Shown: positions 416 through 17,639 of the stretch, in pieces
How positions within the stretch are numbered: the stretch's first letter is position 1
Layout: the number at the start of each line of letters is the position of its first letter
Assembly (NCBI GenBank): GCA_964536985.1
Contig: CAZIBG010000001.1
Coordinates: 1 to 47,016, forward strand
Origin: an uncultured Candidatus Saccharibacteria bacterium
GTDB taxonomy: Bacteria; Patescibacteriota; Saccharimonadia; Saccharimonadales; AWTP1-31
Length of the DNA stretch: 47,016 nt
Direction of reading: 5' to 3'
Made by a program: the position numbers and the translations under genes
Notes under the pieces: generated by a model
Told to the model about the DNA's origin: nothing
The model's input: the letters and a program-made list of their open reading frames with translations, nothing else
Database searches by the model: none

Positions 416-1924
416 CTACTTTAGTGCAGACCTCTTACGTAGTGCGTAGACAATAAAACAAAGACCCAAAGAAGTGGCAATAATCGTGATAGCTGGAGAT
501 ACAGCGCCAATACCAGTGTTCGGAGCTCCGGCATTACCGCTACCAGGCGTAGAAGGAGTAGAGGCGCCACAGACAGCTCCCTCAAATTGGAAGGCACCGA
601 CTGAAGGGCAAGAGTTAGGCCGAGCGATACCACGAGCGTCAGTTGTTACCCCAAGTACTGAAGCACCAGCAGCAATTGCAGGGCTTCCAGGAAGCAAGGC
701 ACGGGTCGGCACACTTCCACTGTTGTTCTGAAGTGGACCGAGAGTAGGAATGATATTGCTGATATTTTGTTGGTCACCTTCTTCGATAAACATGTCACAC
801 GTATCATCGTCTGACATGTTGAATCCGTTCGAAGTGATACCAAAACTAACATCCGTACCTGAGCCACCTACAGCGTTTGTAAGGTCAACAGCAGTACAGT
901 TGGAAGAAACTCCATTATTCAGGTTATCGGCCATGAGGCTATTGCTGACCGAAACATTTACATCTGCATGCCCGCTTGGCTGATCAACAGCTGCGGCCGC
1001 GTAGAAGGCTGCCGACCTGATATCTGCTGCGAAGCCAGTTCCTGTTACTCCTCTCATGCCGGTGACGGTGATGTTATTTACCGAGGTATTCACCGAAGTA
1101 CTTGCACCATCAACTCCAACGGAAAAACTTCCAAATGGTGCAACAAAGTCTTCGCCAGTTATGTCATCCACTGTTACGTTGGAAATTGTTGCAGTAACCT
1201 CGCTATCTCCGATGGCCAAGATTTGAACTCCATATGTAAAGTTTTGGGCACCAGTATTATGGATGTCTGCAATAGTTATATTATTAAGATTGGCCTCTAC
1301 AGCAATATCTCCACCCTCGGCATTTACTGCAATAACTCGAACGAATCCCGCAGCAGTCATGTTGTGAACGTAGATATTCTCCATCAATACTGATGTTGCA
1401 ACTTGTGTACTGGGATCAGCCACGATACCGTCCAGAGCATTACTGTCTTGGCCATCGACTTCAATATTGCGTAACGTAGCGTTGACGTTCTTCATACGAA
1501 GAGCTTTGCTATTGAAGGCAGTAATTTTGAGATCCTGGACACTTACATTGACGATAGGATCATCGTAAGGAACTACCGCCCAAATAGTCGTGTAACTTCC
1601 GTTGTCGCCACTAATTGTCGTCTGATCCATACCAGCACCAGATATTGAAACGGATTTTGTAATCTCTGGCAGGTCAGCTGAAAGTGTTATAGTGCCAGCC
1701 GGAAGAGTGATGGTATCGTTCGTGCCATAGCTGCCACTTGCAGTACAATCCGATTGATTTGCACCGGCATTAACCGAGTCAATAGCAATAGGTAGCGTAC
1801 AGCCACCGGTCACGTTGAGAGTTGCCGCGTGAGCCCGTCCACCACCCAAAGTCAGGGCAGCCAGGAAGGCGAATGCTGCCAGGATCAGTTTGTTTGTTTT
1901 CGTGAGGTTCAGGATATTGAGCAT
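416..1924 (-). CDS. Sortase-anchored surface protein with a parallel beta-helix core and a choice-of-anchor-Q-like C-terminal module (family member, 502 aa)
   Basis: N-terminal signal peptide MLNILNLTKTNKLILAAFAFLAALTLGGGRAHA/ATLNV. The core has N.T/NxT-rich PbH1-like repeats. The C-terminal module reads LGPLQNNSGSVPTRALLPGSPAIAAG...TTDARGIARP. The sorting signal is GAPNTG followed by a hydrophobic stretch and RKRSALK. Confidence 0.85.
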   Translation of the reverse strand: MLNILNLTKTNKLILAAFAFLAALTLGGGRAHAATLNVTGGCTLPIAIDSVNAGANQSDCTASGSYGTNDTITLPAGTITLSADLPEITKSVSISGAGMDQTTISGDNGSYTTIWAVVPYDDPIVNVSVQDLKITAFNSKALRMKNVNATLRNIEVDGQDSNALDGIVADPSTQVATSVLMENIYVHNMTAAGFVRVIAVNAEGGDIAVEANLNNITIADIHNTGAQNFTYGVQILAIGDSEVTATISNVTVDDITGEDFVAPFGSFSVGVDGASTSVNTSVNNITVTGMRGVTGTGFAADIRSAAFYAAAAVDQPSGHADVNVSVSNSLMADNLNNGVSSNCTAVDLTNAVGGSGTDVSFGITSNGFNMSDDDTCDMFIEEGDQQNISNIIPTLGPLQNNSGSVPTRALLPGSPAIAAGASVLGVTTDARGIARPNSCPSVGAFQFEGAVCGASTPSTPGSGNAGAPNTGIGAVSPAITIIATSLGLCFIVYALRKRSALK

Positions 1925-1960
1925 TAGTTAGTTCCTATTATACGTTTGTGCTTATCCTTT

Positions 1961-1991
1961 AGTCTACCCCCCCCCCGAGGATATTGGGCAA
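1961..1991 (-). promoter_or_regulatory. Sigma70-like promoter with a G10 spacer tract, upstream of 416..1924
   Basis: Coding strand reads TTGCCC (1991..1986), then aatatcctc + G10 (a 19-nt spacer), then TAGACT (1966..1961). An AGGAAC Shine-Dalgarno-like motif lies just upstream of the ATG at 1924. Confidence 0.6.
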
Positions 1992-2096
1992 GTCTAGGCT
2001 CAACTAAACACCCGACTGCAAATGACTACACATAGAAACATATAACCTCATCAACTACGCCCCGACAGGGGTGATTATGATATAATAGTGTCTGTA

Positions 2097-2486
2097 ATGG
2101 TGAAGAGATCTAAGTACAATATTGTCATTCCTGTCGGCATGAAGCCTCGACCCAAGCTTCATGAAGAAACGGCTGCCGAGATATTAGCCGCTCACTTAAA
2201 GAGCGATGTCTACTTTATTGAAACTGGCAGCCAGGGAACGCCTGACGTATCTATTAAAGGCACGAAATGGGAGATCAAGAGTCCTATTGGTAGTGGCGCT
2301 AACAATATACAGAAAAATATGCGTGAAGCATCCGCGCAGTCGGAAAGTATAGTTATAGATTTAAGGCGGTCAAAACTGCATCAAACACGAGCACTAGGCT
2401 ATATTAGATTATTCAGTAACAGATACAAGAAACTAAAGCGAGTTTTGGTCATAACTAAATCCAAGCAAATATTGACAATCAAGTAG
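2097..2486 (+). CDS. Hypothetical protein with a PD-(D/E)xK nuclease-like motif; probably translated from a leaderless mRNA
   Basis: The ORF track starts at GTG 2088, but a perfect extended -10 (TGATATAAT, 2078..2086) sits 1 nt before that GTG. ATG 2097 is therefore the more likely start, about 4 nt from the predicted TSS. The motif is TPDVSIKGTKWEIKSP (PD...ExK). This is one of only three + strand ORFs called inside the minus-strand array (with the IS30 transposase and, less certainly, the candidate sRNA). Confidence 0.6.
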   Translation: MVKRSKYNIVIPVGMKPRPKLHEETAAEILAAHLKSDVYFIETGSQGTPDVSIKGTKWEIKSPIGSGANNIQKNMREASAQSESIVIDLRRSKLHQTRALGYIRLFSNRYKKLKRVLVITKSKQILTIK

Positions 2487-2509
2487 TCGACAGCTATAAT
2501 TACAGATGC

Positions 2510-2557
2510 AAAAGACGCATACGGGACTGAATTGACCCAGAGGCGTCTTTTCTTTTT
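2510..2557. terminator. Possible bidirectional terminator between convergent genes
   Basis: aaaagacgc (2510..2518) pairs with gcgtctttt (2543..2551) and is followed by a T-rich tail. The 24-nt loop is long, which weakens the call. Confidence 0.35.
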
Positions 2558-4040
2558 AGTTGCGCTTAGTGGCAAAACTATAGCTAAGGGCGATAAGCCC
2601 AAAGAGGCTAGTAACGGTAGTGACGATAATTGAAGCTGAGCCAATACCAGTGCTTGGTGCAGTAGCTGTAGCTGGGCTCGTTGTAGTTTCGGCTAGAACA
2701 TACTGGTATGCACCAATGGATGGACTTGAGCTTGGCCGGGCGATACCTCGAGCATCTGTAGTTACGCCAAGTACTGAACCACCGGCTGAGATGGCTGGCG
2801 AACCAGGGAGAAGCGCTCGGGTCGGCACAGAGCCACCATTGTTTTGTAGGGGTCCAAGCGTAGAAACGATGTTACCTATGTTCTGTTGGTCGTGTGGCTG
2901 ATTGAAGTTTGTGCAAGAAGCGTCGTCGGACATGTTGTAGTCCAAAGATGTGACCGTGGCATTTCCCGTACCCGTTCCACTGAAGCCTGCGGTTAGATCA
3001 GCAACTTCACAATTAGATGACACGCCGTTACTAAGGTTGTCGGCCAGTAAACTGTTACCGACACTAATGTCCACATTAGCCGTGTCGCCACTAGTCAATC
3101 CTGCGGTAATTGCGTAAAATGCTGCCGACTTCACACCCACAAGTGGAAATGCATTACCAGTAATTCCTCGCATCCCTGTGATAGTAACGTTATATATGGT
3201 CATGTTTGTATTTGCGTCACCTCCAGCGGCAAGCGCACCTCCAGCGAATGGCGCCACTATATTAGCACCTGTTATGTTGTGAATGGTTGTATTAGTAATC
3301 GTAGCGTTTACCGCACCTATATTGCCTGGTGTATTGCCTTGCATACCCACGCCCATGGCGAATCCGTTGATAGTGCCCGTTCCGTTATTTATATTGGCGA
3401 GAGTCGTATTATTAATGTTGGCATTTAATGTACCACCACCGTTTTGGTTAACAAGCACACCATACACAATGGTTTCGTCATAATCTATATCGTGAATATA
3501 TACATTGTTTGTGGACAATGTAAAAGTGTTAGGCGAGTCGTTCATAATCATTAAGTTTGACCATTGGTTTGTTGAATTCTGGCCGTTAATTTCTAGATTC
3601 TCTAAGGTAACATTACAGTTCTCTGCAAGTAGTGCGTACTGATCATAAGCCTGAACCGTCATGTCTGAGATAGTAACATCTACCCCTTGCGCTCTGAATG
3701 GTCGATATTGGCCGGCATCGCCGTCTATAGCAGTACTACTGATACCTGCGCCCTTGATTACCACATCTTCTGTGATATTGGCTGGAGTTGCTGTCAGAGT
3801 AATAGTTCCTGCAGGGATGGCAATAATGTCGCTTGTGCCGTAGCCAGCTTCTGTGGCCGTACAACCAGATTGGTCAGCTCCTGCGTTTACTGAATCGATT
3901 GCGATATTTAACGTACAGCCACCACCTACATTAAGTGTCGCCGCATGCACCCTGCCACCGCCAAAGGCTAGCACTGCTAAAAAGGCGAATGTCGCAAGGA
4001 TGAGTTTGTTTGTTTTTGTCAGATTCAGAATGCTTTCCAT
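2556..4040 (-). CDS. Sortase-anchored surface protein with a beta-helix core and a choice-of-anchor-Q-like module (family member, 494 aa)
   Basis: Signal peptide MESILNLTKTNKLILATFAFLAVLAFGGGRVHA/ATLNV. The C-terminal module reads LGPLQNNGGSVPTRALLPGSPAISAG...TTDARGIARP. The sorting signal is APSTG followed by a hydrophobic stretch and KRN. Confidence 0.85.
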   Translation of the reverse strand: MESILNLTKTNKLILATFAFLAVLAFGGGRVHAATLNVGGGCTLNIAIDSVNAGADQSGCTATEAGYGTSDIIAIPAGTITLTATPANITEDVVIKGAGISSTAIDGDAGQYRPFRAQGVDVTISDMTVQAYDQYALLAENCNVTLENLEINGQNSTNQWSNLMIMNDSPNTFTLSTNNVYIHDIDYDETIVYGVLVNQNGGGTLNANINNTTLANINNGTGTINGFAMGVGMQGNTPGNIGAVNATITNTTIHNITGANIVAPFAGGALAAGGDANTNMTIYNVTITGMRGITGNAFPLVGVKSAAFYAITAGLTSGDTANVDISVGNSLLADNLSNGVSSNCEVADLTAGFSGTGTGNATVTSLDYNMSDDASCTNFNQPHDQQNIGNIVSTLGPLQNNGGSVPTRALLPGSPAISAGGSVLGVTTDARGIARPSSSPSIGAYQYVLAETTTSPATATAPSTGIGSASIIVTTVTSLFGLIALSYSFATKRN

Positions 4041-4075: not shown

Positions 4076-4104
4076 AGTCTACCTCCCCCGTAAGTTATTT
4101 GCAA
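4076..4104 (-). promoter_or_regulatory. Sigma70-like promoter with an interrupted G tract (GGGGGAGG), 17-nt spacer
   Basis: Coding strand reads TTGCAA (4104..4099), then ataacttac + GGGGGAGG (17 nt), then TAGACT (4081..4076). The + strand reads cctccccc. Confidence 0.6.
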
Positions 4105-4144: not shown

Positions 4145-4257
4145 TTGACGATAGTGGCACATTTGAGGTAAAATGTAACTACAATTGATTCGCTTTCCGA
4201 ACTGTCACCGTATGGTGCGCGTGCCTGGGACAACCAGGATAGGAAGCGAATTTTTTA
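4145..4257 (+). ncRNA. Candidate small RNA unit: promoter, about 64-nt branched hairpin, then a T tract
   Basis: The promoter is TTGACG (4145..4150), an 18-nt spacer, then TAAAAT (4169..4174). The outer stem pairs attcgctttcc (4188..4198) with ggaagcgaat (4242..4251). Inner hairpins are cacc-gtat-ggtg (4206..4217) and cctgg-gacaa-ccagg (4224..4238). TTTTTTATTT (4251..4260) follows. No ORF is present. Confidence 0.3.
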
Positions 4258-4878
4258 TTTGAAGTACCAAATATCTTCAGTGCGCTTGTTGATAACTTTT
4301 AGGTAGATATCGCTGTCAGTTTTACGCTTTTGAGTTGTTCGTAAAAGGCTACCCGCAACCATATCTGCCAGCTGAATCAAGTTATCATTCTTGGAGTTAA
4401 CAAACTTCATATCTTTTATTATGCTACCGTCTGGATTAGCCTGCTGGCGAAAGTACGTTATTGCCGCTTTCTTGTAAGACCGGTCTTCGTGGCCATCAAG
4501 ACGAATCCGTCCATCGGTAATCTTGCCAGCACTTTTGGAAAGCACCTCTTTGATCATGTAGTTATAGAATTTATTCTTGTTTCTCCTAAGTTCAACGCTT
4601 CTGATGATAGACTTATCGGCGACTATTGCCCGAACCCGGAACTTACAACTTTTTATCTCGTTTAAAAAAGCGAGACGTATATCTTTACTGGCTTTGTTGA
4701 ACTTAAACTCATGATCGTCTCGCCACCCAAGTGAACGACGCAATCGCTTAATCCTAAGCGCAGTTTCTTCGGCATCAAGGTTGTCATCAAAGACAATGCA
4801 GGCAATAACAAAGTGTGTGCTCGAGCCCTTATCAAACTTAAAGCCCGGATCTCCTGAATCATCTATGAATACCAGCAT
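4255..4878 (-). CDS. DUF3800 family protein
   Basis: The N-terminus MLVFIDDSGDPGFKF and the overall length (207 aa) are typical of DUF3800. This is recognised from memory and was not searched. Confidence 0.75.
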   Translation of the reverse strand: MLVFIDDSGDPGFKFDKGSSTHFVIACIVFDDNLDAEETALRIKRLRRSLGWRDDHEFKFNKASKDIRLAFLNEIKSCKFRVRAIVADKSIIRSVELRRNKNKFYNYMIKEVLSKSAGKITDGRIRLDGHEDRSYKKAAITYFRQQANPDGSIIKDMKFVNSKNDNLIQLADMVAGSLLRTTQKRKTDSDIYLKVINKRTEDIWYFK

Positions 4879-4928: not shown

Positions 4929-6686
4929 CTAGGCTCGCTTGTGAGTACAGACATAACCGAGAGTTAATAGCCCGGCAAAAGAAGCGAACAACGAACCAAC
5001 GAGAGAGACAGGGTTAGCGCCGGTGTTTGGTGCCCCTGCATTACCGCTACCAGACGTAGAAGGAGTAGAGGCGCCACAGACAGCTCCCTCAAACTGGAAG
5101 GCTCCAACAGATGGGCAATCCCCAGGCCGAGCAACTCCACGAGCGTCAGTAGTAACACCTAGGACAGAGCCACCAGAGGCAATAGCAGGAGATCCATTAA
5201 GCAATGCGATAGTCTCTACTGGACCGCCGTTGTTCTGGAGTGGACCAAGGGTGGAAAGTATGTTCGAAACAACAGTATAGCCGGTACAGTGTGGGTCATC
5301 GGTTATGTTATTACCAAGATTTACTGGCGCGAGATCAATGGCACCCGACAGTCCAAAAGCCGCCTTATCTCCTTGAATACAGCTACCAGTTACGCCATTA
5401 CGTGTGTTTCCGGCAATGAGGCTGTTTTGAGCACTTGCTCCGTTGGTGATGTCAGGTACAAAAGGCGCGACTTTATCAACAAAGAATGTTGCGTTAACTC
5501 CGGCCGAAACGAATGCCTGGTAAAACGCACCGGGGTCACTTTGGGTCACTTCGTTCCCAACAATTGTTGCATTGGTAAAAGTTAAATCAGCACTATCTGC
5601 AGTTAAGCTAGCTACAAATCCCGCACCCGTCAGCTGATCGTCTAACTCATTCACAATTATGTTGTTTGCCGACGTAAGGTTAGTGATATTCTGGTTGTTT
5701 GCAAGAGCTCCATTAAAAATCATCCCCGAAACATATGGATGAGATTGGAATGGATCTGCCAGTGGCACTGCTGTTGCGACCTCAACGGCATTTCCTGATA
5801 CGGTCACAGCGTCCATTGTAAATACAGTTCCAACTTCAGAAACAGTACCGCCTTCTTCGTAAATCATAACGCCACCCCACTTTTCGGCTATGTTATCGGC
5901 TATTGTCGTGCGTTCAACATTTACTTCGATACTATCTACATTATCACCACTCACTTGGTAATAGGTACTTATATACAAGCCTGCTGACTCAGATGAGTTG
6001 CCGCTTATTACGCTATCCTGAATGTCTGCAGATGGGATATCAGATAACTGCACTGGCGTAGGTATAATTGAAAGGCCAGCAAAATCGGTACCGAAGTCTC
6101 CAGTGATAAGCCCGCCGAAGATATTATTATTAATGTTATCTGTAATTTTCGAGTCTTTAACAATTGTATGAATAGCGCGCACGTACACACCCATTACCGA
6201 ATTGGACACCTCTACGCCATCGATTGTTACAGTGCCAGAAAACTGAGCACCGATGGCCATTGGAATTGCGTCAAAAATAGTAAAGTCCTTGAACACATGG
6301 TCACGCGCTCCCGATGGTCCTGGGTCAGGGTCTGTATTAAAGCCACCATGACCGTTGGCATCTATATTCGTAACACCCTTGCCAGCGCCAATAATGCTAA
6401 CCGATTTGTTGGTTATAGCCGGTAAATCTGCAGACAGGGTAATGGTTCCTGCGGGAATAGTGATCGTGTCATTTGTGCCATATGAATCAGGAGATATCAC
6501 TGCCGTACACCCAGACTGGTTAGCACCCGCATTAACCGAATTAATAGCGATAGGTAGGGTACAGCCTCCGGTCACGTTAAGGGTGGCCGCATGAGCACGA
6601 CCAGAACCAAATGCAAAAACAGCCAGAAAGGCAAAGGTTGCAAGAATTAATTTTGTTGTATTTGTTAGATTCAGAATGCTTTGCAT
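4929..6686 (-). CDS. Sortase-anchored surface protein with a beta-helix core and a choice-of-anchor-Q-like module (family member, 585 aa, longest core)
   Basis: Signal peptide MQSILNLTNTTKLILATFAFLAVFAFGSGRAHA/ATLNV. The C-terminal module reads LGPLQNNGGPVETIALLNGSPAIASG...TTDARGVARP. The sorting signal is GAPNTG followed by a hydrophobic stretch and HKRA. Confidence 0.85.
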   Translation of the reverse strand: MQSILNLTNTTKLILATFAFLAVFAFGSGRAHAATLNVTGGCTLPIAINSVNAGANQSGCTAVISPDSYGTNDTITIPAGTITLSADLPAITNKSVSIIGAGKGVTNIDANGHGGFNTDPDPGPSGARDHVFKDFTIFDAIPMAIGAQFSGTVTIDGVEVSNSVMGVYVRAIHTIVKDSKITDNINNNIFGGLITGDFGTDFAGLSIIPTPVQLSDIPSADIQDSVISGNSSESAGLYISTYYQVSGDNVDSIEVNVERTTIADNIAEKWGGVMIYEEGGTVSEVGTVFTMDAVTVSGNAVEVATAVPLADPFQSHPYVSGMIFNGALANNQNITNLTSANNIIVNELDDQLTGAGFVASLTADSADLTFTNATIVGNEVTQSDPGAFYQAFVSAGVNATFFVDKVAPFVPDITNGASAQNSLIAGNTRNGVTGSCIQGDKAAFGLSGAIDLAPVNLGNNITDDPHCTGYTVVSNILSTLGPLQNNGGPVETIALLNGSPAIASGGSVLGVTTDARGVARPGDCPSVGAFQFEGAVCGASTPSTSGSGNAGAPNTGANPVSLVGSLFASFAGLLTLGYVCTHKRA

Positions 6687-6723: not shown

Positions 6724-6752
6724 AGTCTACCCCCCCCCGATATTTTGAGCAA
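6724..6752 (-). promoter_or_regulatory. Sigma70-like promoter with a G9 spacer tract, upstream of 4929..6686
   Basis: Coding strand reads TTGCTC (6752..6747), then aaaatatc + G9 (17 nt), then TAGACT (6729..6724). The -35 lies only 12 nt after the sortase stop codon. Confidence 0.6.
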
Positions 6753-6763
6753 GTCTAAGCTAC

Positions 6764-7447
6764 CTAGAAGGCTTCTGCGACAACGATCACCCGAGAGTCA
6801 TAGGTTTTGCTATCTTTATCAAATCGACCAGTGCACGTTATGAGGTTAAGTTGCTTAGGTATGGTTTTGTCGCGCACAAACAGCGCGGTGTCGGCCTCTT
6901 TAGTGGAAACTGTTTGGACTTGTTTGACTTTGAACTTTCTAACGCTTTTATCGCCGTAAGTTACCGTGAATGTATCACTAGTCTTGAGCTTACCCAGGTT
7001 GTAGAAGATTCCTTTAGCATATAGCCCATGCACATGCCCGTCGATAATACTGAGGCCAGCATCACCAGGCAAGGAGCCCTTGGTGTACCAGCCAGCCATA
7101 TTAACATTACTCGGGACTACCATCTGGTTTTCTTTGTCTACGCTTACTTGTTGGATAAAACCTTCTGCCTTAATCGTTGGCAGCTGAATGGAGAGTGGTT
7201 TGTCTGCGGGGACGCTATAGTTATCTGGCACTGGTTGTTCGCTGGGGGTGTCAGTAGATACCGTCGCCACCGTATGTCCAGCCGGTACACCGGCATGTTG
7301 AATGTTATACCAGTTACGTACCGCATTCAGGCCAATGCCAACCAGTAATATGCCTACAATTAATATTACGAGGCGAATACTTCGTTGAGTCTTCGAGGTT
7401 GATCTACGCTTTAATGATCTATTGCTACGCTTCTTTAGTCGAACCAT
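6764..7447 (-). CDS. Sortase (class F-like transpeptidase), copy 1
   Basis: N-terminal TM anchor, catalytic His in IIDGHVHG, Cys in LNLITCTG and Arg in YDSRVIVVA. It is about 90% identical to 13508..14194. Confidence 0.85.
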   Translation of the reverse strand: MVRLKKRSNRSLKRRSTSKTQRSIRLVILIVGILLVGIGLNAVRNWYNIQHAGVPAGHTVATVSTDTPSEQPVPDNYSVPADKPLSIQLPTIKAEGFIQQVSVDKENQMVVPSNVNMAGWYTKGSLPGDAGLSIIDGHVHGLYAKGIFYNLGKLKTSDTFTVTYGDKSVRKFKVKQVQTVSTKEADTALFVRDKTIPKQLNLITCTGRFDKDSKTYDSRVIVVAEAF

Positions 7448-7500
7448 AGTTACTAATATAGACTAGCTCGAGCGTTGTTGCTTGCGGAATACGTATGTTA
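6764..7500. repeat. Duplicated module: sortase gene plus the 3' end of the upstream surface gene (partner about 13508..14250)
   Basis: A perfectly identical run of about 125 nt (roughly 6843..6967 versus 13588..13712) is flanked by further near-identical stretches. Boundaries are approximate. Confidence 0.7.
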
Positions 7501-8965
7501 GTAGTCCAATGCCAAGCATGCTGGCAAGTACATTGAGTATTTGTGCTACAGATCCAACACCCGTGTTTGGAGCTCCTGCGTTACTACCGCCAGATGCAGA
7601 TGGAGTAGAAGCACCGCAGACAGCACCTTCAAATTGGAAGGCACCGACGGATGGGCAAGAGTTAGGACGAGCTACGCCACGAGCGTCAGTAGCTATACCC
7701 AAAACCGAGCTACCAGCAGAGATAGCTGGAGAGCCAGCTAGGAGTGCACGGGTTGGTACGTCACCACCGTTGTTCTGTAAAGGTCCAAGCGTGGAGATGA
7801 TATTGCCAACGTTTTGCTGGTCTCCTGTAGCTGTAAAGTCTGTACAACTATTATCATCGGACAAGTTATGTCCGTTAGATATAATCGAAGCATTAACAGT
7901 ACTGCCGCTGCCTCCAAAATTCGCACTGAGGTCACCTGAATAACAGTTAGTTGGAACAGTATCGGTTGCGTTGTTTGCGATTAAGCTATTTTGGACTTCC
8001 TCGACAACGGTAACCGTTCCTCCTGCATTAGCTGCACCTGCAGAAAAGAATGCTGGTGACTGTGCAATATATACACTAGAACTTCCGCTAATCCCCGTTA
8101 CGGTAGCGTTTCGGACGGTGGTATGCAAACCAATAGTTTGGCCATTATTTGCCCATCCAAAGGTGCCAAACCCAGATGCAGTGTCTGCAGCACTTATATC
8201 GTTGAGTGTTGTGTTATCTACAGTAGAAGTTATAGTCCCGCCTGCTGTGCCTCCATACAGACCAGCACTAATCATGAGGGTATTGACCCCTAACCCGCTA
8301 CTATGCAAGTCTGCTATGGTTGTGTTAGTAAGAGTGACTGTCATATCCCCGGGTGAACTGCCACCAAGAGCGATAATAAACCCGTGAATTTGATTGGCTG
8401 CCGAAATGTTATGTACATAGACATTGTCAGCCACAATTGAGCTCGCTCCACCAGCACTGGGGCCTTGGAGCTGAATTCCGTATATGTTACCACCACTGGT
8501 AAAAGCGTCCTGTCCGTCTACTTCTACATGATCAAGAATTACATTACTAGTTTTTGCTGATATTGCGCTGTTTCTGAACGCTGTAACTTTTAGATCTCGT
8601 ATGGTTAGGTTGTTGTCAGTATCAAAACCGATGTATGAACCACTGTCACCGTCAATGATGGTCTGCCCCATGCCAGCACCTTGAATAATGACTGGCACTT
8701 GTAGCCAGGCATCAGCGGTGAGCACAAATGTCCCTGCGGGAATATTGATGGTATCTGCTGTGCCATACGCTGCTCCTGTTTTCACACATCCGCTGCCATC
8801 CCCCGGAGTGTTCATGGCCGTGATTGCTTCATTAAGTGTACAGTTACTATCTACAGCTAAGGTGGCAGCATGAGCTCGGCCATTTCCGAGTGCCAGCACC
8901 GCCAAGAAAGCAAAGGTTGCGAGAATGAGTTTGTTTGTTTTAGTTAGATTTAAAATACTGAGCAT
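7463..8965 (-). CDS. Sortase-anchored surface protein with a beta-helix core and a choice-of-anchor-Q-like module (family member, 500 aa)
   Basis: Signal peptide MLSILNLTKTNKLILATFAFLAVLALGNGRAHA/ATLAV. The C-terminal module reads LGPLQNNGGDVPTRALLAGSPAISAG...TDARGVARP. The sorting signal is GAPNTG followed by a hydrophobic stretch and RKQQRSS. Confidence 0.85.
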   Translation of the reverse strand: MLSILNLTKTNKLILATFAFLAVLALGNGRAHAATLAVDSNCTLNEAITAMNTPGDGSGCVKTGAAYGTADTINIPAGTFVLTADAWLQVPVIIQGAGMGQTIIDGDSGSYIGFDTDNNLTIRDLKVTAFRNSAISAKTSNVILDHVEVDGQDAFTSGGNIYGIQLQGPSAGGASSIVADNVYVHNISAANQIHGFIIALGGSSPGDMTVTLTNTTIADLHSSGLGVNTLMISAGLYGGTAGGTITSTVDNTTLNDISAADTASGFGTFGWANNGQTIGLHTTVRNATVTGISGSSSVYIAQSPAFFSAGAANAGGTVTVVEEVQNSLIANNATDTVPTNCYSGDLSANFGGSGSTVNASIISNGHNLSDDNSCTDFTATGDQQNVGNIISTLGPLQNNGGDVPTRALLAGSPAISAGSSVLGIATDARGVARPNSCPSVGAFQFEGAVCGASTPSASGGSNAGAPNTGVGSVAQILNVLASMLGIGLLTYVFRKQQRSS

Positions 8966-9003: not shown

Positions 9004-9034
9004 ATTCTACCCCCCCCCCTGAGTTACAATGCAA
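9004..9034 (-). promoter_or_regulatory. Sigma70-like promoter with a G10 spacer tract, upstream of 7463..8965; IS30 abuts the -35
   Basis: Coding strand reads TTGCAT (9034..9029), then tgtaactca + G10 (19 nt), then TAGAAT (9009..9004). Confidence 0.6.
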
Positions 9035-10407: not shown

Positions 10408-13029
10408 TTAAGACTTTACACGAATGCGCTTCAATAAGCTCAGACTTAATATGACCAGCATTGAACTGCCGACGATAATATACCGAGTGTTCTGACCGGT
10501 GTCTGCCAATGAACCACCACTATGAGATTGTGGATTGCTGCCATTATCAATATTCGGATTTGAAGTATCTGTAGTTGCACCAAGAACTAAGCCCTTGAGC
10601 AATCTATCACCAAATATATCGTTAACCCACATATTACCTTCTGTATCAACTACTAGACTACCGCTATAGTAACCTAAGAAATTTTTATTAATTTCATCAG
10701 TTTGTGCGTCATCTCCGAATAATCCATAAGGAATAGGGGTAATTAATCGGTATGTGTTCATTTGATCGGAAGTATTGATTGTGACAATATCACCATTAAA
10801 TAGAAGAGCATGGAAAGTACCATCCCCTGCTAAGTGGATAGAGACAACATTACTACTTTGTCCTTCGGGCAAGGCGAACAAGGTTGCCTGACCACTAGCA
10901 TTGACCTTAACTATATTAAAATTATCATCATTAATACCGCCACTTACAAGCCAGGTATTGCCTAATACATCCATACTGATTGTTCTGCCTTCTGCGATTG
11001 CTGATATCGATGAATTGTCTTCTGGAATAAAATACTCTTCAATGGCCCCAGCTTGGTTCACTATCGCTAGGCTAGAAGTATTTTCGATAGGCTTTGCAAT
11101 CGATAATATTATTTGACCATTTGGATCTGTTGCCATTGACCCGACTAAATGATCCCCTTCTAAATCTATCGTACTAGAATCCCCGAGTGCTGAAATAATA
11201 TGTATACTTGATACTCCGAAACCAACAATATAGACAGAACCGCTAGAGGATAGGGCTAGATTAACAAGACCGTCAGTACAGATATTTTCTATTGGGTATA
11301 GATTTGTAACTTCAGTTTCGTAGAAATAATTTACAACTGTGTCATTTTCGCAATCCACATACCAAATACTATTATTGGACGCAATCGCCAAATTGCTATT
11401 ATTAGTGAGGATACTCGGAGGATTATCTTCTGGAACAGGGTAATATGTTGCCTGATCGGAAGAAGGGTTAAATTTCACAAACCGAGCTGGGGACCCGCTG
11501 CCATCAAAGAAGCCGCTTAGATCCAATCCCCAGAGATTTCCGGTAGAGTCCATGGTACGTAAACTGCCTGGGCTTGTTTGAGAGCTTAAGATAATATTAG
11601 GCTCAACAATCTCAACAGTTATGGGATCACTAGTACTTACATTGCCCTCGAAGTCAAAAGCTTTAGCCGTAAGGGTATGCTGACCTGCTGAGGTAGTCCA
11701 GCCATCCACTCCATAACGATTGATCCAGTTTATATCAAATGGACTTCTATTACTCGTATCTATTAGGGTTTCGTCAATATAGTAATCAACCTTAGTGACT
11801 TCTGTATTATCAGTGGCAGCTACGGATATGCTAAGGCTATTAGCTGTACTGTTGTTAGACGGGCTAGTAATACTGATACTCGGGCTGATAGTATCAGTAG
11901 CGACGTAGTCGGACGCATACAGCTTTGAATCTGCTGTTCCAACATAAAGTTTATTGGTAGCTTGGTCTACGGTTATCGAAGAAGTTGTGGATGGGAGGCC
12001 GGATATAGTCTGCCAACTAGTTAGATTTTTGGTCCGAAGAATTATTTTCTCGCTGGACGAGTTATTACAAAGCACATTAAGAAATTCACCAGATGACTCC
12101 ATGTCTAAGATGTAGTCACAGCCATAATTGTCATAGAGGTCTGTCACTTCTTCGTCGTTATAGTTATCTCCATCATAAGATTGCAATCTGTTGCCATCAC
12201 TACAGATTATTTTACCATCAAAAACCATAGGGTTGGGACCTCTAGCACTAGTGCCATTAGTACAGATATTCTCAGATGTACCGGTTGACCACGAAGCACC
12301 ATCATAAATCTGAGTATCAGCACCTTGGCCGTATACGTCTGCCTGCATATACATTTTACCGTCTAAGGCTTTACCCCAATAATATCGTTCAGAGTCATCT
12401 CCACTACCCGGGTTACGATTATTAGTTTGGGCTACTGACCAATTATCTCCCCCGTCTGTGCTGCGCCAGGCATAGGCTGTTTCGGTACTACCTCCAAACA
12501 TCCATAAATCAGTGCCATTGAGTGATTCAATATCAAATACATGCTCAGCATTGAAGGGTGTATGAATGCTCCAATTACTGGCATTATCACCGACAGCATA
12601 ACCACTTGGACAGCTTCCAGAACAGGTAGCATCGATTGTGGTCGTATAAAGCTTATTGTTAATAACCTTCCAATTACCAAGCGATTCGGATGGAACCGAT
12701 AAAACTGAACCATCGAAAGTACCACTGCTTAGATCAAAAGGGTTAATATCTATAGGCCCAGTGTTGGCTTGATAGTCTCCATACGCAGCAAATAGTTTGC
12801 TGTTAAATACTTGCAGATTATTAATAGTCTTACCAGTATCGGTAGTTTGAGCTGCCGCCTGAGGATGAGTTCCTAGAAGCGTAAAGCTCAAAGACACAGC
12901 CGCTTGGACTTTTAAAGTATTAATTAACTGAGATGAGACTAAGCTGGTCAGCAGTACCAATGAGATAAGTAAAAGCTGACAACGTTTTAAATTTTTTTTA
13001 ACATAGTTGTCTTTTTTAATTAAAAACAT
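10408..13029 (-). CDS. Large sortase-anchored surface protein (873 aa) with beta-propeller/BNR-like regions and an Ig-like domain; architecture differs from the beta-helix family
   Basis: It has a signal peptide, an Asp-box-like motif STDGGDNW and an Ig-like stretch (ISITSPSNN...VDYYIDE...HTLTAKAFDFEGN). The C-terminal half is repeat-rich. The sorting signal is LADTG followed by a hydrophobic stretch and KRIRVKS. Confidence 0.8.
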   Translation of the reverse strand: MFLIKKDNYVKKNLKRCQLLLISLVLLTSLVSSQLINTLKVQAAVSLSFTLLGTHPQAAAQTTDTGKTINNLQVFNSKLFAAYGDYQANTGPIDINPFDLSSGTFDGSVLSVPSESLGNWKVINNKLYTTTIDATCSGSCPSGYAVGDNASNWSIHTPFNAEHVFDIESLNGTDLWMFGGSTETAYAWRSTDGGDNWSVAQTNNRNPGSGDDSERYYWGKALDGKMYMQADVYGQGADTQIYDGASWSTGTSENICTNGTSARGPNPMVFDGKIICSDGNRLQSYDGDNYNDEEVTDLYDNYGCDYILDMESSGEFLNVLCNNSSSEKIILRTKNLTSWQTISGLPSTTSSITVDQATNKLYVGTADSKLYASDYVATDTISPSISITSPSNNSTANSLSISVAATDNTEVTKVDYYIDETLIDTSNRSPFDINWINRYGVDGWTTSAGQHTLTAKAFDFEGNVSTSDPITVEIVEPNIILSSQTSPGSLRTMDSTGNLWGLDLSGFFDGSGSPARFVKFNPSSDQATYYPVPEDNPPSILTNNSNLAIASNNSIWYVDCENDTVVNYFYETEVTNLYPIENICTDGLVNLALSSSGSVYIVGFGVSSIHIISALGDSSTIDLEGDHLVGSMATDPNGQIILSIAKPIENTSSLAIVNQAGAIEEYFIPEDNSSISAIAEGRTISMDVLGNTWLVSGGINDDNFNIVKVNASGQATLFALPEGQSSNVVSIHLAGDGTFHALLFNGDIVTINTSDQMNTYRLITPIPYGLFGDDAQTDEINKNFLGYYSGSLVVDTEGNMWVNDIFGDRLLKGLVLGATTDTSNPNIDNGSNPQSHSGGSLADTGQNTRYIIVGSSMLVILSLSLLKRIRVKS

Positions 13030-13073: not shown

Positions 13074-13103
13074 ATTCTACCCCCCCCCGGAGGGTTAGTG
13101 CAA
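13074..13103 (-). promoter_or_regulatory. Sigma70-like promoter with a G9 spacer tract, upstream of the 873-aa gene
   Basis: Coding strand reads TTGCAC (13103..13098), then taaccctcc + G9 (18 nt), then TAGAAT (13079..13074). Confidence 0.6.
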
Positions 13104-13507: not shown

Positions 13508-14194
13508 TTACAATACTGCCTCAGCTACAATAATCACCCGAGAGTCATAGGTTTTGCTATCTTTATCAAATCGACCAGTGCACGTTATGAGGTTAAGTTG
13601 CTTAGGTATGGTTTTGTCGCGCACAAACAGCGCGGTGTCGGCCTCTTTAGTGGAAACTGTTTGGACTTGTTTGACTTTGAACTTTCTAACGCTTTTATCG
13701 CCGTAGGTTACCGTAAACGTATCGTCAGACTTAAGCTTACCCAAGTTGAAGAATATTCCTTTAGCATAGAGCCCATGGACATGTCCGTCGATGATACTGA
13801 GACCCGCGTCACCAGGTAAAGAGCCCGTGGTGTACCAGCCAGCCATATGGACGTTGCTTGGTACTACCATCTGGTTATCTTTATCAATGCCTACCTGTTG
13901 GATGAAGCCTTCTGTCTTAATCGTTGGTAGCTGAATAGAGAGTGGTTTGTCTGCGGGGACATTGTAGTTATCTGGTACTGGCTGCTCGCTGGGGGTGTCG
14001 GTAGATGCCGTCGACACCGTATGTCCAGCCGGTACACCGGCATGTTGAATGTTGTACCAGTTTCGTATTGCGTTCAGTCCGACACTAACAAGTACAAGGC
14101 CTACAACAAATAGTACGAGACGAACCTTTCGTTGAGTCTTCGAGGCTGGCCTTCGCTTTGATGAATTACTTCTACGCTTCTTTAATAGAGCCAT
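13508..14194 (-). CDS. Sortase (class F-like transpeptidase), copy 2
   Basis: It has the same His/Cys/Arg motifs as copy 1 (IIDGHVHG, LITCTG, YDSRVIIVA) and an N-terminal TM anchor. Confidence 0.85.
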   Translation of the reverse strand: MALLKKRRSNSSKRRPASKTQRKVRLVLFVVGLVLVSVGLNAIRNWYNIQHAGVPAGHTVSTASTDTPSEQPVPDNYNVPADKPLSIQLPTIKTEGFIQQVGIDKDNQMVVPSNVHMAGWYTTGSLPGDAGLSIIDGHVHGLYAKGIFFNLGKLKSDDTFTVTYGDKSVRKFKVKQVQTVSTKEADTALFVRDKTIPKQLNLITCTGRFDKDSKTYDSRVIIVAEAVL

Positions 14195-14209: not shown

Positions 14210-15697
14210 CTAGCTCGTGCGTTGTTGCTTGCGGAATACGTATGTCAGCAATCCAAGTCCAAGTAAACCGACTAATACGTTTAGTATTTGTGTTGTAGAA
14301 CCTATACCGGTATTTGGAGCACCAGCGTTACCACCAGATGTAGACGGAGTGGACGCACCACAGACGGCACCTTCAAATTGGTAGGCACCGACAGATGGAC
14401 AGCTGTCAGGTCGAGCAATACCGCGGGCGTCGGTAGTTACACCAAGCACCGCGCTACCAGCAGCGATGGCTGGCGAACCGGCAAGCAACGCGCGAGTTGG
14501 GACATTGCCACCGTTATTCTGAAGAGGCCCAAGGGTGGAGATAATATTAGATACATTTTGCTGGTCACCGGTTTGGGTAAATGAAGTACAAGAGGCATCA
14601 TCAGAGATGTTGTTGCCAAGTGACGTAATCGTTGGCGTGCCCGTCCCGGAACCACCGGCATTGGGTGTTATATCAATAGTCGAACAGTTGGAAGAATCTG
14701 AACCCGATAGGTTGTCGGCAAATAAGCTGTTACTGACATTGATCGTGACAGATGCAGTATCACCACTAGTTTGCCCAAATGCAGCTGAGTAAAAGGCTGC
14801 TGATTTAGCCCCCGCAACCGGAAACAGGGTGCTCGTAATGCCACGAGTTCCAGTAATTGTCGCATTACTCACCGTCATATTAACCGCCGCATCACTTCCA
14901 GAAGCTATACTTAAGCCGACAAAAGCAGCTGCTACGCTCGTAGCTTTTATGTTATGGATTGTAGTATTAGAGATTGTCGTATTTATAATGCCCATGCCTT
15001 GAACTTGTGTTGCAAAACCAAAAGCGTCCCCACCTGATACAGAAGTATTTTGAATATTTGTTAGGGTGGTATTGTTTACGTTTACCGTAAGTGTCGCCCC
15101 ACCAGTTTCCTGAATATTAAATGCTGTAAGAGCAGTACTACTGTGGGTTATGTCGTGCATATATAGGTTATTTGTTGTTACGCTTTTGTCATCACCCGAA
15201 GTACTGATAATCACTATTGCCGTATCACCACCTGCGTTGGAGCCATCTACTTCGATATTCTGCAAAGTCACATCACAATCTTGTAGACCGATTGCTACAT
15301 TTGCGTATGAAGCAATTTTCATGTCCTGAATCGTAATAGCTACTCCAACAGCTTGTATCCCATCGTAGGCTCCGCTACTGCCATCTATGGCTGTAGTGTT
15401 CATGCCAGCGCCATGTATAGTTACGTCTTCCGTTATTTGAGGTAGATTAGTGTTAAGCGTAATAGTTCCAGCTGGGATGCTAATGGTGTCGCTCGAACCG
15501 TAACTACCACTTGCTGTACAACCGCTCTGGTTAGCTCCTGCGTTAACCGAGTCGATAGCAATAGGCAGCGTACAACCACCACTTACATTCAGTGTTGCCG
15601 CATGCGCCCGACCAGAACCAAAAGCCAAGACTGCCACGAAGGCAAAAGCTGCCAGGATGAGTTTATTTGTTTTAGTTAAATTCAGAATACTGAGCAT
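14210..15697 (-). CDS. Sortase-anchored surface protein with a beta-helix core and a choice-of-anchor-Q-like module (family member, 495 aa)
   Basis: The ORF track extends to 15829, but the family-conserved start MLSILNLTKTNKLILAAFAF is ATG 15697, preceded by an AGGAAA Shine-Dalgarno-like motif. The extra 44 codons read through the promoter, where the C tract is translated as GGG. The sorting signal is GAPNTG followed by a hydrophobic stretch and RKQQRTS. Confidence 0.85.
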   Translation of the reverse strand: MLSILNLTKTNKLILAAFAFVAVLAFGSGRAHAATLNVSGGCTLPIAIDSVNAGANQSGCTASGSYGSSDTISIPAGTITLNTNLPQITEDVTIHGAGMNTTAIDGSSGAYDGIQAVGVAITIQDMKIASYANVAIGLQDCDVTLQNIEVDGSNAGGDTAIVIISTSGDDKSVTTNNLYMHDITHSSTALTAFNIQETGGATLTVNVNNTTLTNIQNTSVSGGDAFGFATQVQGMGIINTTISNTTIHNIKATSVAAAFVGLSIASGSDAAVNMTVSNATITGTRGITSTLFPVAGAKSAAFYSAAFGQTSGDTASVTINVSNSLFADNLSGSDSSNCSTIDITPNAGGSGTGTPTITSLGNNISDDASCTSFTQTGDQQNVSNIISTLGPLQNNGGNVPTRALLAGSPAIAAGSAVLGVTTDARGIARPDSCPSVGAYQFEGAVCGASTPSTSGGNAGAPNTGIGSTTQILNVLVGLLGLGLLTYVFRKQQRTS

Positions 15698-15733: not shown

Positions 15734-15763
15734 ATTGTACCCCCCCCCTGAGATACAATGCAA
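15734..15763 (-). promoter_or_regulatory. Sigma70-like promoter with a G9 spacer tract, upstream of 14210..15697
   Basis: Coding strand reads TTGCAT (15763..15758), then tgtatctca + G9 (18 nt), then TACAAT (15739..15734). Confidence 0.6.
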
Positions 15764-15773
15764 GGAACTAGAC

Positions 15774-16007
15774 TTATAGATCACCACTGAGTATTCGCGA
15801 GACATCGATGTAGCGTTGGCAGTCATCAATACTACGATCAGCTAGGGGAATGGCGAGGATACGCTCAAAGTCAATCTTTGCTACAGCCAAGTCTTCGTCA
15901 TAAGTTACAGCTAATTCTGAGGCCAATACTTTAGACCCGAGTGAAGACGGAAAATATAATCCACGCTCGGCGGCTATCAGTTCATAGTCTTGTATTCTGT
16001 CTGTCAT
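15774..16007 (-). CDS. Small acidic protein of unknown function (77 aa), near-identical copy of 65..298
   Basis: ORF track. Only a few substitutions separate it from the copy at 65..298. Confidence 0.7.
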   Translation of the reverse strand: MTDRIQDYELIAAERGLYFPSSLGSKVLASELAVTYDEDLAVAKIDFERILAIPLADRSIDDCQRYIDVSRILSGDL

Positions 16008-16124
16008 CTGTTAACCATACCATGTAGAGCGATATTCTCTAGTGTCCTTCTGCCGTGACATCCACCCGAAAGTCATAAGTTTTACTGGCTTTGTGCATCG
16101 GCTTCCTTCGAACGAACCACGAAC

Positions 16125-17639
16125 CTACTTTACTGCATTCCTCTTGCGTAGTGCGTAGGCAGTAATGCCAAGGCCCAGAGAAGTGGCAATAATCGTCATA
16201 GCTGGAGATACAGCGCCAATACCAGTGTTCGGAGCTCCGGCATTAGTTCCTGCGTTAGTCGTAGAGGCGCCACAGACAGCTCCTTCAAATTGGAAAGCGC
16301 CGACGGATGGGCAAGTACTTGGGCGAGCTACACCACGGGCATCAGTAGTTACACCTAGGACTGCGCCACCGGCTGAGATAGCTGGGCTGCCGGCCAGGAG
16401 TGCACGAGTCGGGACGACACCACCATTGTTTTGAAGGGGACCAAGTGTAGAGATAATATTGCTGACATTCTGCTGGTCACCTGGTTGATTAAAGCCCACA
16501 CAGCTGTCGTCATCTGAGATGTTATAACCGTTAGAAGTAATGACTTGCGTACCATCAGTACCACTACCCCCTATGGCGCTGGTTAGATCTGCGACCGTGC
16601 AGTTAGATGATACACCGTCGTTAAGGTTATCGGCCATCAGGCTATTGGTGACCGTTACAGTTGCATTTGCGCTATCACTCGGCTGATCAACAGCAGAAGC
16701 TGCATAAAAAGCCGCGGACTTAATCCCTGCAGCAGCAGCTGTTCCTAAAGCGCCTCTAAGTCCCGTGATAGTGATGCTTTTCACTGCAGTACTGACAGTG
16801 GCATCACCACCTACACCTGCTGCGAAACTACCGAAAGGTGCAGTAAAATCATCCCCCGTAAAGTCATGGATAGTCGTATTGGTTATGGTGGAATTTATTA
16901 CTCCTCCACCTAGTACCAAGACCTTGATGCCGTAAGTAAAATTGCCAGCGCCGGTATTATGAATATCTGCTATAGTAACATTTTTCAGGTTTACGTTCAT
17001 TGTCCCACCCGCACCGCCTTCGACCTCAATGGAAAGAACATCTAAGAATGATGTGGTATCAAATCCATGGATGTACAGGTTCTCCACATCCATACTTATT
17101 GTGTCTGTCGATCCACCGTTTAACGCCACACCTCTCTGGTCTGCGCCACCACCCGTACCATCAACTTCTATATTTTTTAATACGGTATTTACGTTTTTAG
17201 CTCGTATTGGACGGCCGTCAAACGCAGTGACCTTCAAATCTTGAATATTTACATCAATTAGTGGATCGGAGTCCCCGATTATTGCTTGTATACCCGTGTA
17301 GTTTCCGCTTCCACCGTTGATAATAGTCTGATCCATCCCCGCCCCCTTGATTGCGACAGATTCGGTGATGATTGGTAAATCCGCCGTCAAAGTCTGCGTC
17401 CCCGCCGGAATAGTAATAGTGTCATTGGTGCCGTATCCATTGGGAGATACTACTGCCGTACACCCAGACTGGTTAGCACCCGCATTAACCGAATTAATAG
17501 CGATTGGGAGGGTACAGCCTCCGGTCACGTTTAATGTAGCTGCATGTGCTCTTCCCGAACCAAAGGCCAGTACCGCCAAGAAAGCAAAAGTGGCCAGGAT
17601 GAGTTTGTGTGTTTTAGTTAGATCCAAAATACTGAGCAT
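16125..17639 (-). CDS. Sortase-anchored surface protein with a beta-helix core and a choice-of-anchor-Q-like module (family member, 504 aa)
   Basis: The ORF track extends to 17768. The conserved start MLSILDLTKTHKLILATFAF is ATG 17639, with an AGGAAA Shine-Dalgarno-like motif upstream. The sorting signal is GAPNTG followed by a hydrophobic stretch and RKRNAVK. Confidence 0.85.
   Translation of the reverse strand: MLSILDLTKTHKLILATFAFLAVLAFGSGRAHAATLNVTGGCTLPIAINSVNAGANQSGCTAVVSPNGYGTNDTITIPAGTQTLTADLPIITESVAIKGAGMDQTIINGGSGNYTGIQAIIGDSDPLIDVNIQDLKVTAFDGRPIRAKNVNTVLKNIEVDGTGGGADQRGVALNGGSTDTISMDVENLYIHGFDTTSFLDVLSIEVEGGAGGTMNVNLKNVTIADIHNTGAGNFTYGIKVLVLGGGVINSTITNTTIHDFTGDDFTAPFGSFAAGVGGDATVSTAVKSITITGLRGALGTAAAAGIKSAAFYAASAVDQPSDSANATVTVTNSLMADNLNDGVSSNCTVADLTSAIGGSGTDGTQVITSNGYNISDDDSCVGFNQPGDQQNVSNIISTLGPLQNNGGVVPTRALLAGSPAISAGGAVLGVTTDARGVARPSTCPSVGAFQFEGAVCGASTTNAGTNAGAPNTGIGAVSPAMTIIATSLGLGITAYALRKRNAVK

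Follow-up and report, generated by a model that had tools for sequence, protein, structure and literature searches.

The 47,016-nt stretch of Candidatus Saccharibacteria DNA analysed here (the window, in whose positions all coordinates are given) carries a chromosomal array of surface-protein genes, six of which, named A to F, are paralogs on the minus strand. The reading that we favour, and consider reasonably probable, is that these genes encode anchored beta-helix proteins, that each has its own poly-G switch in the promoter, and that their modules are reassorted between strains and species. An original prediction for this region had proposed both the reshuffling of modules and ON/OFF switching, and these parts of it stand; the cause and mode that it gave, near-identical gene ends driving conversion within the genome, do not. 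Six co-oriented paralogs had been predicted, and open reading frames (ORFs) were found at exactly the predicted positions, all on the minus strand:

Paralog A, 416..1924, minus strand: 502 amino acids (aa), with signal peptide, beta-helix, choice-of-anchor-Q domain (NF041518, 61.7 bits, cut-off 25) and APNTG sorting signal
Paralog B, 2556..4040, minus strand: 494 aa, sorting motif APSTG
Paralog C, 4929..6686, minus strand: 585 aa, with a longer and the most divergent core
Paralog D, 7463..8965, minus strand: 500 aa
Paralog E, 14210..15697, minus strand: 495 aa counted from the ATG at 15697
Paralog F, 16125..17639, minus strand: 504 aa, the sequence taken for the structure model

A longer, TTG-started ORF of E runs through the E promoter. 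In the protein alignment of the paralogs, overall identity to A is 44-66%, and because self-BLAST between paralogs gives E-values of 1e-20 to 1e-60, the family relationship is not due to chance. A homologue search returned 148 proteins, the closest non-self match being 61% identical, and all named ones are from Saccharibacteria or Patescibacteria, which supports the earlier guess of an epibiotic or host-dependent cell. For comparison between genomes, a scan of GTDB species representatives yielded 15 loci in five Saccharibacteria metagenome-assembled genomes (MAGs), labelled from L001 onward (L004 is genome CALCZR; L008 and L013 are in MAG JBPOHZ), and in all 15, family genes stand in tandem together with sortases and poly-G tracts. 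Look-up of protein A added the JGI contig L019, which is from another sample and encodes that protein in exactly the same form. A metagenome scan with the type-1/4 pattern of the 5' untranslated region (5'UTR) gave 3 loci, two of them probably duplicates of the CALCZR MAG. The comparison sequences are all MAG or metagenome contigs, and L005, L006, L010, L012 and L013 are short contigs that break at repeats or at IS30.

Recombination of modules is evident when the family genes are compared segment by segment between genomes. Some alleles are 99-100% identical over 1.2-1.4 kb and only 72-83% identical over their first ~200 nt. In three pairs (window E and L006_403, L001_7600 and L010_2457, L001_11933 and L011_11807), the core, the choice-of-anchor-Q (Cq) block and the tail are 99-100% identical (1.2-1.4 kb), and the N-terminal (N) block only 77-83%. 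Between window E and L006_403 the 5'UTR is identical, nucleotides 18-205 of the coding sequence (CDS) show ~75% identity, and from nt ~205 through the stop into the sortase gene identity is 100%. D shares its final ~180 nt, at 96-99% identity, with the tails of three genes from three other genomes that have unrelated cores; against the same three genes, the N block, core and Cq block of D show 45-73% identity (cores 45-49%), and the jump lies just 3' of the Cq domain. The profile of L009_4192 against L014_10001 changes repeatedly, from 92-100% upstream to 67-75% in an N patch, 85-97% in the core, 65-72% in Cq and an unrelated tail (block values: core 89%, Cq 74%, tail 48%). Paralog C is 99-100% identical to L013_245 from another MAG. 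Between B in the window and B in L019, 55 differences among 1,485 sites fall into three patches, 40 of them within the Cq block over a span of 199 nt, where third codon positions predominate (P = 7e-25 for the clustering, Fisher test); a second patch in the B-specific core holds ten, of which nine are synonymous and one changes V to M.

Single-breakpoint Fisher tests give P = 7e-11 to 7e-43, and abrupt switches from 100% to ~75% identity within single genes occur in at least six independent genome pairs. When module types are tabulated, a single 5'UTR type is found with six different core types; a single tail type accompanies three cores and four 5'UTR types, and a single core type two different tails. 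Between the window and L004, the junction pieces (a tail, the following sortase or DUF3800 gene, and the promoter and N block of the next gene) are syntenic at 86-89% identity and the cores between them are unrelated, which suggests that the unit of exchange is often the core. The documented exchanges took place between strains or species and between array positions; L006, for example, has an E-type gene at the F position. With other genomes added, the similarity patterns of the 5', core and 3' segments are grossly incongruent and the breakpoints are sharp, so the recombinational reshuffling of modules is real, and the predicted crossovers in or beside conserved blocks are indeed found. Array content differs as well. 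At 4371-9076 of L019 (window ~2490-2550), an IS1595-family transposase gene and a gene for an 871-aa NosD/Beta_helix protein are inserted between B and A, and these insertions are, as far as the assembled sequences tell, strain-level structural variation of the array. The C-type gene of L019 has a different signal peptide (MRVKQKQLLAG...).

The products of the six genes align in three parts, an N block (about residues 1-95), a core of variable length and a C-terminal block, followed by the sorting signal. Pairwise protein identity among the six is 60-87% in the N block and 67-85% in the C block, compared with 23-55% in the core, and core length varies (C has 585 aa in all, the others 494-504). 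Diverged, length-variable cores between conserved ends, a conserved C-terminal module with a sorting signal, and a beta-helix fold of the cores had all been foreseen; the protein alignment, the identity profiles along the genes, which are not flat, and structure prediction agree with each of them. As read from the sequence, the signal peptide has a K-rich n-region, a hydrophobic stretch (LILATFAFLAVLAF) and an AHA/A site. The sorting signal combines APNTG or APSTG, whose first residue is A and not L, with ~22 hydrophobic residues and an RKR/KQQR basic tail.

An AlphaFold2 (AF2) model of paralog F, built on 95 homologues (52 of them with APNTG), reached a predicted local distance difference test (pLDDT) of 90.2 and a predicted template-modelling score (pTM) of 0.83. 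It begins with a signal-peptide helix (residues 9-27); a capped right-handed beta-helix then extends as far as residue ~370 and is followed by a small C-terminal domain, a disordered linker (residues 457-477) and a terminal transmembrane helix (residues 479-503). Foldseek returned seven PDB matches at E ≤ 1e-3, all of them beta-helix proteins. The C block is the NCBIfam choice-of-anchor Q domain also in C (63.0 bits) and D (62.2 bits). The Pfam scan of the window paralogs gave no family at E ≤ 0.01 and no Beta_helix/PbH1 (PF13229), which is present only in the remote homologues P0114 and P0120. Mundane structural roles follow for the three conserved blocks: secretion and N-cap, C-cap and Cq domain, and anchoring. 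Taken together, sequence and model identify the proteins as sortase-anchored right-handed beta-helix surface proteins with predicted wall attachment, and from fold and anchoring we infer an adhesin or glycan-binder function.

With respect to function, the proteins could instead be carbohydrate-active enzymes, secreted or anchored, such as lyases or epimerases that act on the host envelope; substrate range would then account for the diversity of the cores. The top Foldseek matches speak for this, since they comprise AlgE4/AlgE6 epimerase modules, PL6 lyases, GH87 enzymes and phage tailspikes (the matches also include Rhombotarget A and PfbA, 4mr0). However, TM-scores are low (0.2-0.48) and sequence identity is 9-16%; moreover, no catalytic motif was recognised across the 95 homologues, whose invariant core residues look by eye like an Asn/Thr ladder plus caps, and the window paralogs match no Pfam enzyme family. 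We consider the enzyme explanation unlikely. Being a matter of function alone, it does not conflict with the mechanism of switching and mosaicism.

It is also evident that the conserved ends are old at the DNA level. Between paralogs, nucleotide identity is 56-77% in the N and Cq blocks and falls to 0.17-0.48 (near saturation) at their four-fold degenerate sites; the synonymous rate (dS) exceeds 1 or is saturated in most in-window pairs, and the ratio of nonsynonymous to synonymous rates (dN/dS) of the ends is 0.03-0.10. Because dS is saturated and dN/dS is this low, the ends are kept by purifying selection for secretion, fold capping and anchoring rather than by recent homogenisation. Concerted evolution of the ends is rejected by the same synonymous saturation and by the 29 N-block types that a 90% threshold separates among 32 family genes from seven assemblies. 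The description of the ends as near-identical cassettes thus holds loosely for the proteins and fails for the DNA. In the core, dN/dS is 0.16-0.21 in the two unsaturated pairs where it is measurable, and there diversifying selection is not supported. Judging from these rates, the cores are anciently diverged alleles under purifying selection that are shuffled and not hypermutating.

These observations bear directly on the mode of recombination. Under programmed, high-frequency gene conversion or unequal crossover among the six paralogs of one genome, the conserved ends would serve as the substrates. Three in-window identity tracts do exceed the permutation expectation (each P ≤ 0.0002): 53 nt in the N block between C and F, 39 nt just after Cq between A and C, and 48 nt in the tail between A and F. 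Segmental duplications are also visible, in A tail plus downstream against F tail plus downstream (93-100% identity, a likeness due in part to a conserved 77-aa ORF lying between genes) and in the regions of the two sortase genes (84-92%), and the strain differences in array content described above point the same way. However, ends that are not near-identical DNA are poor substrates for homologous recombination within a genome, and the CDSs of paralogs mostly share no exact run longer than 13-20 nt. In addition, an in-genome donor was found for no diverged patch. A silent-cassette test was negative: promoter, ribosome-binding site (RBS), signal peptide and sorting signal are present in all six copies, each of which is thus a whole gene of the expressed type, and silent donor cassettes are absent; nor do the variable regions have near-identical guide DNA at their flanks, as in cassette-type antigenic variation. 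Of the gene conversion or unequal crossover first proposed, module recombination between strains and species is retained, and we regard the intragenomic homologous mode as quite improbable.

Since the comparators are MAGs and metagenome contigs, several of them short and broken at repeats or IS30, the mosaics might be assembly artefacts that arose where assemblers switched between paralogs or co-occurring strains at shared k-mers, and the type-1 5'UTR indeed is an exact 45-nt repeat between E and F. However, junctions of the same kinds turn up again in the assemblies of at least six different studies, and the paralogs share almost no exact k-mers of ≥21 nt within the N and Cq blocks, so a wholesale artefact is disfavoured. 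The patch in the B-specific core has no paralogous source, its differences lie at third positions, and identity decays gradually near some breakpoints; even mixed haplotypes would require identical flanks around diverged patches in the population. We therefore give an artefactual origin little chance. The weakest alternative, an ordinary old paralog family formed by duplication and divergence without notable recombination, its ends under purifying selection and its core relaxed or diversifying, agrees with the saturated synonymous sites, the low dN/dS of the ends and the conserved caps and variable turns common in beta-helix proteins, and is very improbable given the switches inside genes (P down to 7e-43), the reassorting module types, and cassettes 99-100% identical between genomes whose housekeeping identity is ~70%.

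Another layer of variation lies in the predicted promoters. On the coding strand of the first 18 kb, seven G8-G10 tracts and one interrupted tract occur, one per surface-protein gene (G8 matches: 16 observed against 0.58 expected by chance):

G10 tract, 1967..1976, minus strand: promoter of A, TTGCCC-19 nt-TAGACT
Interrupted tract GGGGGAGG (G5AG2), 4082..4089, minus strand: promoter of B, spacer 17
G9 tract, 6730..6738, minus strand: promoter of C, TTGCTC-17 nt-TAGACT
G10 tract, 9010..9019, minus strand: promoter of D, TTGCAT-19 nt-TAGAAT, with an IS30 element abutting the -35 hexamer
G9 tract, 15740..15748, minus strand: promoter of E, TTGCAT-18 nt-TACAAT
G10 tract, 17682..17691, minus strand: promoter of F, TTGCAC-19 nt-TACAAT
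G8 tract, 32..39, minus strand: promoter of a further family gene that begins off the left window end, spacer 17; its continuation in L019 encodes MLSILNLTKTNKLILATFAFLAV...
G9 tract, 13080..13088, minus strand: promoter (13040-13110) of an 873-aa surface protein, TTGCAC-18 nt-TAGAAT

All eight tracts start 8-9 nt after TTGCnn and abut a TAnAnT hexamer, which stands ~45 nt before the ATG, with an AGGA RBS after it. The spacers implied for the eight promoters are 17-19 nt, within an overall observed range of 16-19 nt. The promoter and 5'UTR had been described as nearly invariant, which does not hold: the 130 nt upstream of the paralogs have a mean identity of 65% and fall into at least four types, and what they have in common is limited to the G-tract, the TAnAnT hexamer, the RBS and part of the leader. 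An Rfam scan found no RNA element in the shared 5'UTRs. Tract length differs in otherwise identical DNA. L019 and the window agree at every position of a 2,237-nt stretch (a CdiA_C-like gene, the promoter, the whole of gene A and a further 186 nt) except for G9 (L019) against G10 (window) in the A promoter. The B tract is an uninterrupted G9 in L019 against G5AG2 in the window, and that of the off-window gene is G6 in L019 against G8. Orthologous promoters in other genomes have G7-G10, and those of B G7-G9. Such length differences between otherwise identical sequences are, at the level of the assembled DNA, the signature of slipped-strand hypermutability, and together with the enrichment of tracts they support the predicted ON/OFF switching. 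By analogy with tp0126/tpr of Treponema pallidum and porA of Neisseria, we infer that tract length affects transcription.

The assignment of the -10 element gains support from family members that lack a tract. In the 40-50 nt upstream of L001_7600, L002_10001, L003_10001, L007_10001, L009_8193, L009_9992, L010_2457 and L012_550, a TGn extended -10 (e.g. TGTTACAAT, TGATACAAT) stands where tract-bearing promoters have GGG-TAnAnT. Two observations led us to keep the TTGC...G(n)TAnAnT reading: the hexamer after the tract is invariant, and the tract-less paralogs have TGn-TAnAAT in the corresponding position. The extended -10 also suggests that tract-bearing promoters depend on correct -35 spacing, and two promoter classes in the family are implied, one constitutive and one switchable. 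Moreover, since the 873-aa protein has the same TTGCAC-G9-TAGAAT design, the poly-G switch appears to be a module of general use among the surface proteins of this locus. In at least five comparisons (window 1-39 against 32-331, L013_245, L019_128, L019 at the off-window gene, and window E against L006), similarity flips exactly at the tract, which may, speculatively, also be a recombination junction.

The other genes of the array region and its setting are as follows:

Sortase 1, 6764..7447, minus strand: directly downstream of D; PF04203, E = 5.9e-19; closest to class F
IS30-family transposase gene, 9087..10337, plus strand: NF033563, 293.7 bits
873-aa surface protein, 10408..13029, minus strand: within the array, with a Big_7 Ig domain and an LADTG-type sorting signal
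Sortase 2, 13508..14194, minus strand: directly downstream of E; 92% nucleotide identity to sortase 1 (300 nt compared)
Replic_Relax-like gene, 17798..18571, minus strand: at the array head; PF13814, E = 2.5e-5, just under cut-off; synteny kept in L004, L009 and L011
Large serine recombinase, 18895..20610, plus strand: putative island integrase whose 3' end overlaps the tRNA-Glu gene
tRNA-Glu(CTC), 20570..20644, minus strand: the point at which identity to genome CALCZR drops from ~88% to ~70%

Close packing of the paralogs, as first described, was not observed, because two sortases, a DUF3800 gene, a CdiA_C-like ORF on the opposite strand, the IS30 gene, the 873-aa gene and small ORFs (three in number) intervene. 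Against the class F model NF033748 the sortase scores 114 bits, under the cut-off of 166. At the array head, the order is tRNA-Glu, the overlapping serine recombinase gene, the Replic_Relax-like gene and then the array. Compared with CALCZR, identity is 69-73% for the collinear housekeeping genes on the far side of the tRNA and 88% for the stretch from the tRNA inward, from recombinase to array; individual cassettes reach 100% identity in other genomes. The drop at tRNA-Glu suggests a likely island boundary, and the array is probably the cargo of a tRNA-Glu-integrated, horizontally moving island. The remaining window (20.8-47 kb) is ordinary chromosome, with genes for a histidine kinase, a response regulator, Der, Pth, DprA, TopA, MurG, FtsW, PBP and MraW. 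Saccharibacteria are naturally competent (PMC10633639), and with DprA in the window, transformation is a plausible route for short patch imports.

The mechanism that we propose would act on proteins ordered as signal peptide plus N-terminal cap, divergent beta-helix core, choice-of-anchor-Q domain, APNTG linker, transmembrane helix and basic tail. In a first layer, the G8-G10 homopolymer would fill the spacer between TTGCnn and TAnAnT, slipped-strand mispairing would alter the spacer length, and each gene would thereby be switched on or off independently. In a second layer, which the comparison of genomes shows, the upstream region, 5'UTR, N block, core, Cq, and tail plus downstream gene are reassorted by homologous recombination between strains and species. 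Crossovers cluster at the poly-G tract, within the N block (CDS nt ~20-280) and at the Cq/tail boundary, with short patch imports of 40-200 nt in addition. DNA could arrive by uptake in naturally competent Saccharibacteria, by island transfer or by both. The ends are constrained by secretion, fold capping and anchoring and would still retain just enough homology for occasional core exchange.

Several points weigh against this explanation. When all comparison sequences, a small sample, were searched for donors of the replaced N and Cq patches, the best non-self match was 68-83% identical. Assembler haplotype chimeras may account for individual junctions, the comparators all being metagenome assemblies. 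Both switching within a population and its effect on transcription were judged from assembled sequence alone, as were the -35 and -10 assignments; the generic promoter/terminator scan (51 sites against 36 expected, with no terminator enrichment) is not discriminating, and the A promoter has an alternative reading. The second boundary of the island lies beyond the window, the array running off its left end. Finally, the adhesin role is drawn from fold and anchoring, and the best structural neighbours of the modelled protein are carbohydrate-active enzymes.

A bolder extension, which we consider doubtful, is that the poly-G tract also serves as a preferred recombination junction and that the whole array sits on a tRNA-Glu element that moves ready-made, switchable host-attachment repertoires between Saccharibacteria genera, so that epibiont host range would be a horizontally transferable, phase-variable trait.

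Some further features of the window deserve mention. The IS30 element (9036-10400) ends 1-2 nt upstream of the -35 hexamer of D, and the same IS end (...GGGTTGAACTCAAG) abuts the -35 of two family promoters of different type, at L008_243 (L008 1-242) and L013_245 (L013 1-244). Such an arrangement suggests that these promoters are preferred targets or that promoter and IS end were transferred together. A search at seed 8 detected no terminal inverted repeats in the IS30 copy. The 873-aa surface protein has a possible beta-propeller region and is unrelated to the beta-helix family. A small acidic ORF ending in ...SRILSGDL/EL occurs in three copies on the minus strand (65-298, 15774-16007 and 13158-13409; 77, 77 and 83 aa), in each case immediately upstream of a poly-G promoter; at the DNA level the two 77-aa copies agree at ~97%, a likeness well above that of the adjoining adhesin genes, and the 83-aa copy, the sole copy scanned, has no NCBIfam match. 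Between C and B, an Rfam DUF3800-IX RNA motif (71.4 bits, 4187-4256, plus strand) adjoins the DUF3800 gene (4255-4878, minus strand) and is called on the strand opposite to it; in L019 the DUF3800 gene is broken into two short ORFs. Between B and A, a 132-aa ORF (2088-2486, plus strand) has a CdiA_C toxin-type domain (PF18451, E = 1e-14) and no delivery domain, and may be an orphan toxin or an immunity-like remnant. Outside the array, a 109-nt direct repeat of 99% identity (22752-22860 and 22959-23067) lies inside the gene for a 407-aa response regulator (22239-23462), and the ORF at 45474-46472 (minus strand) has a KwaB-like domain of Kiwa anti-phage defence (PF16162, E = 1.4e-7).

Work on the means by which ultrasmall epibiotic Patescibacteria recognise host bacteria and stay attached to them has so far pointed to type IV pili and unnamed adhesins (PMC10633639, PMC11623550). 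The locus offers a concrete candidate for attachment, an array of predicted wall-anchored beta-helix proteins that would be individually switchable and whose cores would be drawn from a pool of old alleles that strains, and even genera, exchange. The literature searched contained no account of surface families that are phase-variable or mosaic in either Saccharibacteria or Patescibacteria; if our explanation is correct, this would be the first case of phase variation and surface mosaicism to be reported for the candidate phyla radiation. Markers for strain-level host specificity would follow from it, along with a warning that MAG-based gene catalogues collapse or fragment such loci.

Compared with known systems, the locus differs from TprK, VlsE, PilE/pilS and Msp2 in having no promoterless silent donor cassettes among its six copies and no near-identical guide DNA; in sequence terms it lacks the defining features of cassette-type antigenic variation, namely silent cassettes and near-identical guide repeats. 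It resembles the proteins of NF041518 in its C block (61.7-63 bits), the domain lying, according to the family name, just upstream of the C-terminal sorting signal; however, NF041518 covers a 58-residue domain only, and the beta-helix, the array and the switching fall outside its definition. PfbA of Streptococcus pneumoniae is a cell-wall-anchored right-handed beta-helix adhesin (PMC3718772). The window proteins resemble it in fold and anchoring, and PfbA is among the Foldseek matches, but a single gene encodes it, not a multigene array with phase variation, and structurally it matches weakly (TM ~0.2). Neisseria is naturally transformable, and its surface-protein alleles (opa) are mosaic through imported tracts. 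In its porA and opc genes, a G or C homopolymer in the promoter spacer sets the transcription level (summarised in PMC7864442). A G-tract in the predicted promoter spacer is likewise found here, whereas the neisserial proteins belong to a Gram-negative outer membrane, and opa switches through a pentamer repeat in the coding region and not through a promoter tract. In the vlp cluster of Mycoplasma hyorhinis, a highly conserved block of promoter, 5'UTR and signal peptide precedes a divergent external region, and the genes are switched independently by a poly-A in the -35/-10 spacer. Vlps are lipoproteins with tandem-repeat ectodomains that vary in size by repeat slippage, and their 5' blocks are near-identical DNA. 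The array layout and, on the promoter assignment made here, the homopolymer in the spacer of each gene are alike in the two systems, whereas the 5' blocks are alike here only as protein.

By analogy of organisation, the closest analogue is the tpr family of T. pallidum. The Tpr proteins have conserved N termini and unique centres, with chimeric alleles between paralogs that differ among strains (PMC3656149). In subfamily II (tprE/G/J), tprL and tp0126, a promoter poly-G of 7-11 nt modulates transcription through changes in its length, and in tp0126 it lies between -35 and -10, where 17-nt spacing is optimal (PMC7864442). The two families differ in that Tpr proteins are unrelated outer-membrane beta-barrel or porin candidates, whereas those in the window are predicted sortase-anchored beta-helices from another phylum with a monoderm-type envelope; exchange here, known from sequence alone, takes place between species and on a probable mobile island. 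Despite these differences, the array shares with tpr its conserved N termini, its diverged middles, its chimeric alleles and the poly-G tracts, here in predicted promoters.

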